From Candidatus Nanoarchaeia archaeon (GTDB lineage Archaea; Nanobdellota; Nanobdellia; Woesearchaeales; GW2011-AR9), in NCBI GenBank assembly GCA_035288985.1, contig DATDYP010000011.1:7673-71672 (forward strand): a stretch of 64,000 nucleotides of DNA, in the 5' to 3' direction. Made by a program: the position numbers and the translations under genes. The notes beneath the pieces were generated by a model. It saw only the letters and a program-made list of their open reading frames with translations, ran no database searches and was not told the DNA's origin. Positions 47,269 to 48,643 of the stretch are shown one piece after another (position 1 is the first letter of the stretch; each line of letters starts with the position of its first letter).

Positions 47269-47310
47269 GATGATGAAAAAAGAGGGGCAGTTTATATATA
47301 TTTTTGTGTG

Positions 47311-47473
47311 GGCTCTGTCCTGAATCTCACTTTGTTCGGGTTAGCGTGAACTCGCTTTTCGTACCTAAGACAATACTGTGGGTCCTTCCCGCAGGGAGCT
47401 TCCCCTCCCACACTCACTTCGGTGATGAGAGCACCGCTCGAACTTACACGCTAACCGCATCCATGACAGAGCC
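47311..47473 (+). ncRNA. Candidate structured ncRNA, copy 1 of a paralogous pair (unclassified family)
   Basis: Roughly 163-nt GC-rich segment. The termini form a bipartite stem (GGCTCTGTC/GACAGAGCC and GGTTAGCGTG/CACGCTAACC) and there are internal hairpins. A TATA box (TTTATATATA) lies at 47291-47300 and TTTTGTG immediately follows 3'. It is about 70% identical to 62484-62645, with compensatory changes in the stems. Confidence 0.45.
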
Positions 47474-47485
47474 TTTTGTGCGGAA

Positions 47486-48643
47486 ATGTTTTTAAAGAAG
47501 GAAAGTTCTGCCTGCATTTTAATGGACAATATTTTCTGGGGACTATCTGAAACAGTTGCACGATACGATCAAGAACAATTCCGCAGGTTCCTGTCCCTGC
47601 CTCCAGACCAGATCGAGCGAGCCTGCTGCGACGAGAAGGGAAGATTAAAGCATATCATCAGGGCGGAACATTTTGACCGGGAGTTTTTAGAAAAAATCTG
47701 CCAAACAGCAAATGCTGCACGGGTAATAGCCAAAAAAGAAGACAATTTCCTGAACGGATTGCTGCGCTCAAAATCAATTCTAAATTATTTCAGCCAGCCG
47801 AGTTCAAGAACGTTTCTTTCTTTTTCCATGGCCGAGGCTCACTTAGGTATGCGCAGGGAAGAAGTACGGGATGTAAAAACATCTTCTTCAGTAAAAGGCG
47901 AAACCGAACAAGACGGATTACGGACTAACTCCTCCTATTTCGATGCCATTGTCTGCAGGCACCCCAGCGACATTTATGATTTATTTGCAGTATGGGTGAT
48001 GAAAAATTGTGACCGCGAAGTGCCGATCATCAATGCCGGCTCGGGGAAAATGGAGCATCCTACACAAGGATTGTTAGACTATTACACGCTTTGGGAATCA
48101 TTTAAAGGAAAATTGAATGATCTGACAGTCCTCTATGTCGGAGACTGCCGGCGGGGAAGGACCGTTCATTCTTTAGCTAAAATACTGTCTTTACATGCTA
48201 ACCAAACAGCATTGTTCGTAGCTCCAGATGAGCTACAGATAGATTCCGAAACTGAACACTATGTCACAGGACGGGGAACAGTTGTCGGGAAAATAACCGA
48301 CAAGCCTTTACGAGAGCTTGTTCCCTTGGCAGATGTTGTGTATATGACCAGGATTCAAAATGAGCATGGCGGGGAGGGAAATTATAATCCAGATTTTATT
48401 TTCACTGAAGATATGCTAGATTCCATGAAACCTGGCGCAATACTGATGCATCCCCTTCCCAAGAGAGAAGAGATCGATCCTGCCGTAAATTACCGCCATA
48501 AGGATCCCAGAATAGCGTATTGGCGACAGATGCGAAATGGAATGTGGACCAGAGTGGCGCTGCTAGCCAATGTTTTTGGCGTTGATGACAGAATCATGGA
48601 ACACTACGCAGGAAGCATATCAGACGCCAAAGGACCAATCTAA
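47486..48643 (+). CDS. Aspartate/ornithine carbamoyltransferase-family protein (PyrB-like, divergent, N-terminal extension)
   Basis: HPTQGLLD and HPLPKREEID match ATCase motifs. The carbamoyl-phosphate motif STRTR is altered to SSRTF. About 45-55 extra N-terminal residues. No pyrI is adjacent. Confidence 0.55.
   Translation: MFLKKESSACILMDNIFWGLSETVARYDQEQFRRFLSLPPDQIERACCDEKGRLKHIIRAEHFDREFLEKICQTANAARVIAKKEDNFLNGLLRSKSILNYFSQPSSRTFLSFSMAEAHLGMRREEVRDVKTSSSVKGETEQDGLRTNSSYFDAIVCRHPSDIYDLFAVWVMKNCDREVPIINAGSGKMEHPTQGLLDYYTLWESFKGKLNDLTVLYVGDCRRGRTVHSLAKILSLHANQTALFVAPDELQIDSETEHYVTGRGTVVGKITDKPLRELVPLADVVYMTRIQNEHGGEGNYNPDFIFTEDMLDSMKPGAILMHPLPKREEIDPAVNYRHKDPRIAYWRQMRNGMWTRVALLANVFGVDDRIMEHYAGSISDAKGPI

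Follow-up and report, generated by a model that had tools for sequence, protein, structure and literature searches.

A 163-bp folding repeat of DPANN archaea is very probably a MITE with a covarying internal hairpin

The question raised by this locus is whether a GC-rich, strongly folding segment of 163 bp, located between argS and an OTCace/PyrB-like gene, is the gene of a structured RNA or an element of another nature. The first-pass annotation had taken it for an unclassified RNA, one of a pair of resident paralogues in the window (by which we mean the whole stretch of 64,000 nucleotides that was analysed), with a promoter and a terminator of its own and with compensatory changes between the two copies. 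It had placed the copies rightly, at 47311-47473 and 62484-62645/6, and both are indeed GC-rich and non-coding. Taking into account its terminal inverted repeats (TIRs), the target-site duplications (TSDs) around it, its presence at unrelated loci and the empty sites found in relatives, all of them read from sequence, we conclude that the element is very probably a MITE, that is, a non-coding and non-autonomous DNA transposon. As such it is a new family of a known kind of element in DPANN (Woesearchaeota/Nanoarchaeota-like) archaea. The coordinates of its features are given in Table 1.

The two copies were 77.8% identical over 162 nt by BLAST, a little above the figure of about 70% proposed at first, while the similarity itself stood. 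It starts and stops exactly at GGCTCTG...CAGAGCC, and the flanks are dissimilar. The GC content of the element was 0.55, versus 0.39-0.46 for the window. Compared with shuffled sequences, the predicted fold of the + strand had z = -5.0 in copy 1 and -4.5 in copy 2, and the - strand also folded well (z = -3.2 and -3.8, respectively). Within the 64-kb window, neither a search by pattern nor one with the covariance model, run without filters, found any copy besides these two.

Table 1. Positions of the element copies and associated features in the window. The strand given for the element is an arbitrary family orientation; CM, covariance model.
Feature	Coordinates	Strand	Remarks
Element copy 1, 163 bp	47311-47473	+	CM R1, 168 bits; absent from the orthologous L066 spacer
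Left TSD, copy 1 (TTTTGTGTG)	47302-47310	.	8/9 against the right flank in register
Left TIR, copy 1 (GGCTCTGTCCTGAAT), 5' arm of P1	47311-47325	.	Conserved in 8/8 copies; pairs with 47459-47473
P2 left arm, subterminal inverted repeat (GGTTAGCGTG)	47340-47349	.	Pairs with 47449-47458; 10 bp
Internal hairpin P3, copy 1 (UGUGGG...CCCACA)	47377-47412	+	Encloses the CCC/GGG hairpin at 47387-47397
P2 right arm (CACGCTAACC)	47449-47458	.	Pairs with the left arm
Right TIR, copy 1	47459-47473	.	Pairs with the left TIR
Right TSD, copy 1 (TTTTGTGCG)	47474-47482	.	In-register match; the "T-run" of the first-pass annotation
TATA box of the argS promoter (AAAAATATATATAAAC)	47292-47301	-	Same distance from the ArgS ATG in L066, without the element
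Element copy 2, 163 bp	62484-62646	+	Last base mutated C>T; CM R1, 173 bits; absent from the L068 spacer
Left TSD, copy 2 (TCTTTCTTC)	62475-62483	.	6/9 in register; within the relic 3' end of the Exo_endo_phos frame
Internal hairpin P3, copy 2 (UGCGGG...CCCGCA)	62550-62585	+	Paired, as in all eight copies
Right TSD, copy 2 (TACTTCTTA)	62647-62655	.	In-register comparison with the left flank
TATA box of the DUF212 promoter (GTATATAAA)	62455-62462	-	Same distance from the DUF212 ATG in L068, without the element
Present Exo_endo_phos stop (TAA)	62646-62648	-	"TA" from the TSD plus the terminal base of the element
Relic of the original Exo_endo_phos stop	62465-62467	-	Beyond the element; the restored frame ends there

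The first-pass annotation could match the segment to no known RNA, and our searches agreed with it. No match reached the Rfam gathering score in the whole 64-kb window, and at E ≤ 10 only chance-level matches (U12, snoRNA-like) were obtained around both copies, with a best E of 0.18; those touching the element were U12 over the first ~44 nt and SNORD125 over the last ~23 nt of a copy. ARAGORN detected no tRNA or tmRNA. Hammerhead ribozymes are three-way junctions whose catalytic core, CUGAUGA ... GAAA, is conserved among homologues; no hammerhead model matched even at E ≤ 10, and the hammerhead-like string GUGAUGAG...CGAAC is confined to copy 1, as had been noticed from the comparison with copy 2. 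No part of the family varies more than the stretch from P3 to the 3' arm of P2, in which this string falls.

Homologues were then sought elsewhere. The scan of species-representative genomes with the pattern CGGGTTAGCGTGNACTCGC gave two diverged copies (72-78% identity), L007 and L008, on two contigs of the MAG CAYIZT01, and three chance matches besides. The metagenome scan, performed with GGGTTAGCGTG-N88-112-CACGCTAACC, gave four further distinct copies from one sample (L024, L031, L032, and L036) and a sequence identical to L008 (L043); the rest of its matches came mostly from an unrelated bacterial soil palindrome which shares the 11-mer by chance. This makes eight distinct copies (alignment A4), two in the window and six in related metagenomic or MAG contigs, and the copy number is modest in each source: two in the 64-kb window, two in the MAG and four in one metagenome. 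The copies are 159-165 bp long and mutually 20-28% diverged, which gives no indication that they arose in a recent burst. Coding capacity is absent, with stop codons in every frame in most copies, indels that are not multiples of 3 and no reading frame open throughout the eight. When a profile of the frame that is most often open was used to look for further copies hidden under mis-called ORFs, it returned a sole protein, from the locus L074, which is identical to L036.

Homologues with a covarying P3 hairpin do exist, but the eight copies lie in eight unrelated gene contexts, none of them syntenic: argS/OTCace and DUF212/Exo_endo_phos for copies 1 and 2 of the window, AlaE-like/MgtC for L007, a glycosyltransferase-rich cluster for L036 (= L074), and unannotated ORFs for the remaining ones. 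The named relatives of ArgS and Exo_endo_phos are Woesearchaeota or Nanoarchaeota. The MAG that carries L007 and L008 is labelled "uncultured Methanosarcinales", a label which we regard as doubtful because proteins identical to those of L007 have been deposited under "Nanoarchaeota archaeon". On these grounds a Methanoperedens/Methanosarcinales origin, to which sample names and the MAG label had pointed, was rejected. In a census of MITEs, a Woesearchaeal genome had a very high density of them, one of the highest among archaea (PMC11602168).

All eight copies are bounded by a 15-bp terminal inverted repeat, GGCTCTGTCCTGAAT/ATTCAGGACAGAGCC, and seven are flanked by a clear 9-bp direct repeat in register. 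The repeat is perfect in L008 (TCTAGTACT), L024 (TTAGGAACC), L031 (CTTAAAAAA), and L032 (GCAATAATC), and it agrees at 8 of 9 positions in copy 1 of the window, at 7 in L007 (TATTCTACC/TTTTCCACC) and at 6 in copy 2 of the window. The eighth, L036 (= L074), has a flanking repeat of only 6 bp and out of register (4/9 in register), which we count against the MITE explanation. Over the eight copies 61 of the 72 flank positions matched, versus about 24 expected; non-cognate flank pairs had a mean of 3.0 matches in 9, and control 9-mers taken 9 or 18 nt further out were at background level (23/72 and 18/72). The observed total was reached by 6 of 100,000 permutations, about as many as should recover the true pairing by chance. 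DDE-type transposition has this signature, namely, terminal inverted repeats and a duplication of constant length whose sequence varies. It follows from these flanks that the T-run immediately downstream of copy 1, regarded at first as a terminator of the element, is the right target duplication TTTTGTGCG of TTTTGTGTG.

Repeats derived from IS200/IS605 (PATE, REPIN) and ends bearing omega or bridge RNAs lack TIRs and target duplications, carry subterminal hairpins and are associated with TnpA, TnpB, or IS110 genes. They were ruled out here by the TIRs and the variable 9-bp TSDs. No TnpA, TnpB, or IS110 gene was present among the annotated neighbours (Pfam; gene tables of L074 and of the empty-site relatives), the neighbours of L024, L031, and L032 being unannotated.

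Relatives with precise empty sites were found for both positions of the window, L066 for copy 1 and L068 for copy 2, and the covariance model detected no element copy anywhere in the fetched loci of the relatives. The closest relative of ArgS in the protein database (P0002, 71% identity) is encoded on contig L066, whose gene order is that of the window: S15, B3_4, OTCace, ArgS, and SRP54. Its OTCace-ArgS spacer is 81 bp long, without the element, and has a single 9-mer corresponding to the TSD of copy 1, CACCTAAAA on the - strand. When the element and one 9-mer were removed from the window, the restored sequence aligned colinearly with this spacer, with 69% identity overall and nearly perfect agreement at the junction, TTAAAAAYATTTCCAC..AAAAATATATATAAAC. 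The same alignment indicates, from sequence, that the OTCace-like gene probably starts at 47522 and not at 47486, both starts being present among the gene calls of the window.

The TATA-like sequences near the copies had been attributed to the element itself. The sequences are there, but they are placed about 24-30 nt from the start codons of argS and DUF212, on the strand opposite to the element, and they are conserved in L066 and L068, which lack it; for both reasons they are the promoters of argS and DUF212. Between copies 1 and 2 the spacing of TATA box and element start changes by 10 nt, which argues against a promoter common to both. In the usual archaeal geometry the TATA box is centred near -26, and by this geometry we infer that mRNAs made from the two promoters would have a short leader or none. 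Since the copies precede argS and DUF212 when read on the - strand, a cis-regulatory leader of these genes was considered; it was rejected, the TATA box being situated between element and start codon and the relatives being without the element. The same evidence bears on the proposal of a resident, vertically inherited structured RNA gene in two paralogues with own promoter and terminator. A strong predicted fold, compensatory changes, and TATA-like and T-rich sequences adjoining the copies speak for it, but both loci are empty in relatives, the homologues are non-syntenic and bounded by TIRs and by in-register 9-bp TSDs, and the TATA boxes serve the opposite-strand genes and differ in spacing, so that we hold this explanation to be very improbable.

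In L068 (GCA_964373595.1) the Exo_endo_phos protein is 91% identical to that of the window, and its gene lies 39 bp from DUF212. The restored site of the window was colinear with it and 80% identical. The Exo_endo_phos protein has now 257 aa; excision in silico of the element and one repeat gave 260 aa, the length of the orthologues P0121 and P0123, and the restored protein ends in ...FDLKKEKE*, as compared with ...FDFRKKKK* in the orthologues. The recovery of the 260-aa frame places the insertion of copy 2 in the last codons of Exo_endo_phos. With its terminal G unmutated, copy 2 would give TAG, likewise a stop. The locus with an identical ArgS was found on at least 10 metagenome contigs, and copy 1 was unchanged in the six of them examined. 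Both insertions of the window are old and fixed.

In other relatives the Exo_endo_phos/DUF212 spacer holds a gene of 207 aa or one of 428 aa. Such variation recalls an integron attC-type site, or another product of site-specific recombination, as does an imperfect palindrome of about 160 bp with GTTAGCG/CGCTAAC inverted cores. The attC consensus is RYYYAAC/GTTRRRY, and in a comparison by eye the cores do not fit it. The annotated flanks contain no integrase and no cassette array, and each site has a 9-bp duplication of another sequence, a sign of transposition rather than of recombination at a fixed core. We regard this explanation as extremely improbable.

A mechanism for the MITE can be proposed from these data. 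A DDE-type transposase encoded elsewhere would bind the terminal repeat GGCTCTGTCCTGAAT and, probably, the invariant subterminal repeat GTTAGCGTG as well; it would cut the target with a 9-bp stagger and join the element ends, and gap repair would leave the 9-bp duplication. Copy 1 would have landed in a gap of ~10 bp that separates two divergent core promoters, those of argS and of the OTCace/PyrB-like gene, leaving both TATA boxes intact. Copy 2 would have landed in the last Exo_endo_phos codons, making the protein 3 residues shorter and giving the last base of the new stop. An autonomous partner was searched for as a second pair of matching inverted termini 0.1-4 kb apart, and neither the window nor any of the loci retrieved contained one. 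Pattern scans of viral contigs gave chance matches only, none confirmed by the covariance model, and the phage and plasmid collections held no related sequence. In the literature searched there was nothing relevant on the terminal repeat sequence and no match to the element family.

The consensus fold calculated with RNAalifold from the eight copies has four helices. The long bipartite terminal helix described in the first-pass annotation is present, with P1 of 12-15 bp, which is the terminal inverted repeat, and P2 of 10 bp; it is the inverted-repeat architecture of a transposon viewed as a fold. P1 was 90.8% paired, its 11 unpaired cells out of 120 being spread over 8 pairs. P2 is invariant in the eight copies, which is partly a matter of ascertainment, both scan patterns having required the P2 arms. 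The internal hairpin P3 has 5-6 bp, and five of its pairs were paired in every copy (0/40 cells unpaired). Three of these five have changed on both sides (CG/UA/GC, GC/AU, and GC/AU), and throughout the eight copies P3 has only Watson-Crick pairs, without any G.U intermediate. P3 encloses an inner hairpin of 3-4 bp (CCC/GGG) capped by a GNA or GNRA-like loop, with one compensated pair and one U-G/U-A alternation. P3 and the inner hairpin taken together hold four compensated pairs, with 1 of 72 cells unpaired. The observed covariation score was reached by none of 500 shuffles, and slid controls fell to 31-46% paired. The paired differences between the window copies reported at first (GUGGG/CCCAC versus GCGGG/CCCGC, and UCCC..GGGA versus CCCC..GGGG) are therefore real, and the compensation persists across the eight copies. 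They had been explained by selection on RNA structure; the hairpin does keep its pairing by double substitutions, but the interpretation as an RNA gene is unsupported.

In our reading, the unpaired changes of P1 are decay after insertion, since an element can stay active only with ends that match its transposase, and P3 diverged among active source lineages while it was held paired. The clean covariation of P3 is not required by a plain cut-and-paste model, and we count it against the MITE explanation.

It may be asked whether the MITE also carries a functional structured RNA, being transcribed and acting through P3 or through the whole fold. Such an RNA could regulate the transposase of the element, as an antisense RNA or by titration, in analogy to RNA-OUT of IS10, or it could be a 3'-end stabiliser or terminator of the upstream gene, a role proposed for bacterial REP and ERIC-type repeats. 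The maintained pairing of P3 and the inner hairpin agrees with this. So does the U-G/U-A alternation of the inner hairpin, which exists on the + strand and would be a C.A mismatch on the - strand, and so does the orientation of the copies, sense in 6 of the 7 that lie just downstream of a gene. With a one-sided p of 0.06, however, this bias is not significant. The eight copies share no conserved internal promoter or terminator, T-runs of 4-5 occurring in only four of them; the flanking TATA boxes belong to the neighbours, and the - strand folds nearly equally well. We consider an RNA-carrying MITE unlikely, and, once the element is accepted as a MITE, it is probably a purely passive one. If the RNA existed, the element would be a mobile gene for a structured RNA in DPANN archaea, whose genomes are reduced, and a stabiliser or terminator would explain the sense orientation downstream of genes.

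The covariation of P3 could also come from a process at the DNA level, either replication template switching in the palindrome, by which one arm is copied onto the other at a single stroke and which reportedly creates and maintains perfect hairpins, or two inverted half-sites that co-evolve with a dimeric DNA-binding protein, for example, the transposase. This proposal can be held together with the MITE explanation, as it bears solely on how the compensatory changes are to be understood. The purely Watson-Crick pairs of P3, free of G.U intermediates, are as expected if both arms change together, and the whole element is an imperfect palindrome; against this, the inner hairpin has its U-G/U-A alternation, and about 27 nt separate the two arms of P3, a long distance for a single operator. 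We give it a minor but appreciable probability. Eight sequences are too few to separate template switching, co-evolving half-sites, and a hairpin with a role in mobilisation. Our best guess is the last of these: P3 may fold, as single-stranded DNA or within a transcript, into a hairpin that mobilisation requires or that regulates it.

A GC-rich folding repeat with compensatory changes, in an archaeal genome that is AT-rich, looked like a new RNA family, and the TSDs and empty sites reveal what is very probably a transposon; in this case, covariation by itself failed to identify an RNA gene. The MITE reading adds a cleanly documented family to DPANN archaea, in which mobile elements have been little studied. 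Both insertions were reconstructed to the base, copy 1 splitting two back-to-back promoters without damage and copy 2 rewriting the 3' end of a gene with its stop. The covarying P3 raises a small, testable question, namely, what constrains the interior of a MITE.

By comparison with known systems, the duplication of 9 bp and a terminal repeat beginning with GG are shared with several groups of insertion sequences, and we take this as a lead only. Duplications of 9 bp are made by IS1, by IS10/IS50 (IS4 family), by the IS903 group (IS5 family), and by the IS256/Mutator-like elements. The end of IS903 (GGCTTTGTTGAATAAATC) resembles the element end GGCTCTGTCCTGAATCTC at the first 8 bases. Unlike in these groups, no transposase gene was linked to the element ends in the sequences examined. 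The antisense hairpin RNA-OUT is encoded near a transposon end, the outside end of IS10, and is a stable stem-loop whose pairing matters for function. The element has no sequence similarity to it and no target mRNA is known, but a covarying hairpin inside a transposon makes the analogy possible. Correia/NEMIS, ERIC, RUP, and BOX are short mobile repeats of bacteria, with RNA-like folds, which can be co-transcribed with their neighbours; they are usually high-copy, and some are curated in Rfam. The present element is likewise a short mobile repeat whose predicted fold resembles a structured RNA, whereas it is archaeal, low-copy and not in Rfam.

Prokaryotic MITEs are non-autonomous derivatives of insertion sequences (definitions in PMC3852290) and have been counted in archaeal and DPANN genomes (PMC11602168). 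The family described here differs from them in being apparently low-copy and old, at the divergence given above, in having a covarying hairpin outside the TIRs, and in that no parent insertion sequence was found in the window or in the fetched loci. It resembles them in being small and non-coding, in its TIRs and TSDs of fixed length, and in its location at dispersed, non-homologous sites between genes or at gene ends, which are empty in relatives.

Insertion of MITE copy 2, the second window copy of the 163-bp non-coding transposon, removed the final three codons of the Exo_endo_phos gene, and the present stop codon of this gene is formed by the target duplication together with the first base of the element. 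This terminal base of copy 2 is mutated, G>A on the Exo_endo_phos coding strand, which changed the stop codon from TAG to TAA; a relic of the original stop codon persists (table). Weak C/D-box snoRNA-like Rfam matches were also obtained here, SNORD125 (20.5 bits, E = 0.18) and SNORD30 (19.1 bits), both far under the Rfam gathering scores. About 85 of their 107 bp fall within the coding 3' end of Exo_endo_phos and about 23 nt reach into the 3' end of copy 2; these matches are probably due to chance.

The spacer between Exo_endo_phos and DUF212 is a variable spot across the window and its relatives: it is occupied by the MITE in the window, measures 39 bp in L068, the relative with the empty site for copy 2, and holds a gene in other relatives (table).

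Coordinates of the features described
Feature	Locus	Position	Strand	Remark
Exo_endo_phos gene	window	62646-63419	(-)	
Relic of original Exo_endo_phos stop codon	window	62465-62467		downstream of MITE copy 2
SNORD125 and SNORD30 matches	window	62624-62730	(-)	
Exo_endo_phos/DUF212 spacer	L072	2279-3166		207-aa gene, function unknown
Exo_endo_phos/DUF212 spacer	L073	2431-3318		207-aa gene, function unknown
Exo_endo_phos/DUF212 spacer	L070	4798-6489		428-aa gene
Rival OTCace/PyrB-like starts	window	47486-47524		
TATA-like AAATGTTTTTAAAG	window	47484-47497		~30 nt upstream of 47522 start
226-aa ORF	L066	6933-7613		between S15 and B3_4 gene
Bacterial nested-palindrome repeat, examples	L021	9528-9728		
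	L028	10311-10511		

Seven MITE copies (L007, L008, L024, L031, L032, L036/L074, and window copy 2) are located 0-60 nt past the stop codon of an upstream gene. With respect to this gene, six are oriented alike and only window copy 2 departs from the pattern, a bias that is not significant at this sample size. The MAG containing L007 and L008 (CAYIZT010000072.1 and CAYIZT010000010.1) is titled "uncultured Methanosarcinales archaeon". We doubt this label because two L007 proteins are identical to MEK6809234.1 and MEK6809235.1, both deposited as "Nanoarchaeota archaeon"; probably the label is wrong or the bin is mixed.

Near copy 1, the OTCace/PyrB-like gene has two rival start calls, 47486 (385 aa) versus 47522 (373 aa), and alignment with L066, the relative with the empty site for this copy, favours 47522 as the putative start. 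L066 also carries an ORF with a weak LAGLIDADG_3 match, apparently absent from the corresponding place in the window, which suggests another small mobile insertion.

The metagenome scan with a pattern based on the subterminal inverted-repeat arms of the MITE also caught a bacterial repeat, a nested palindrome about 190 bp long, present on about 20 soil-metagenome contigs among L020-L046, with the layout GTAGGGTGGGTTAGCGTGGCC ... ATCCACGCGTAACCCACC ... GGTGGGTTACGCGTGGAT ... GGCCACGCTAACCCACCCTAC. It has an 11-mer inverted repeat in common with the archaeal MITE. This is the sole feature that the two share; the bacterial repeat is unrelated to the archaeal element and looks like a separate REP- or MITE-like family.
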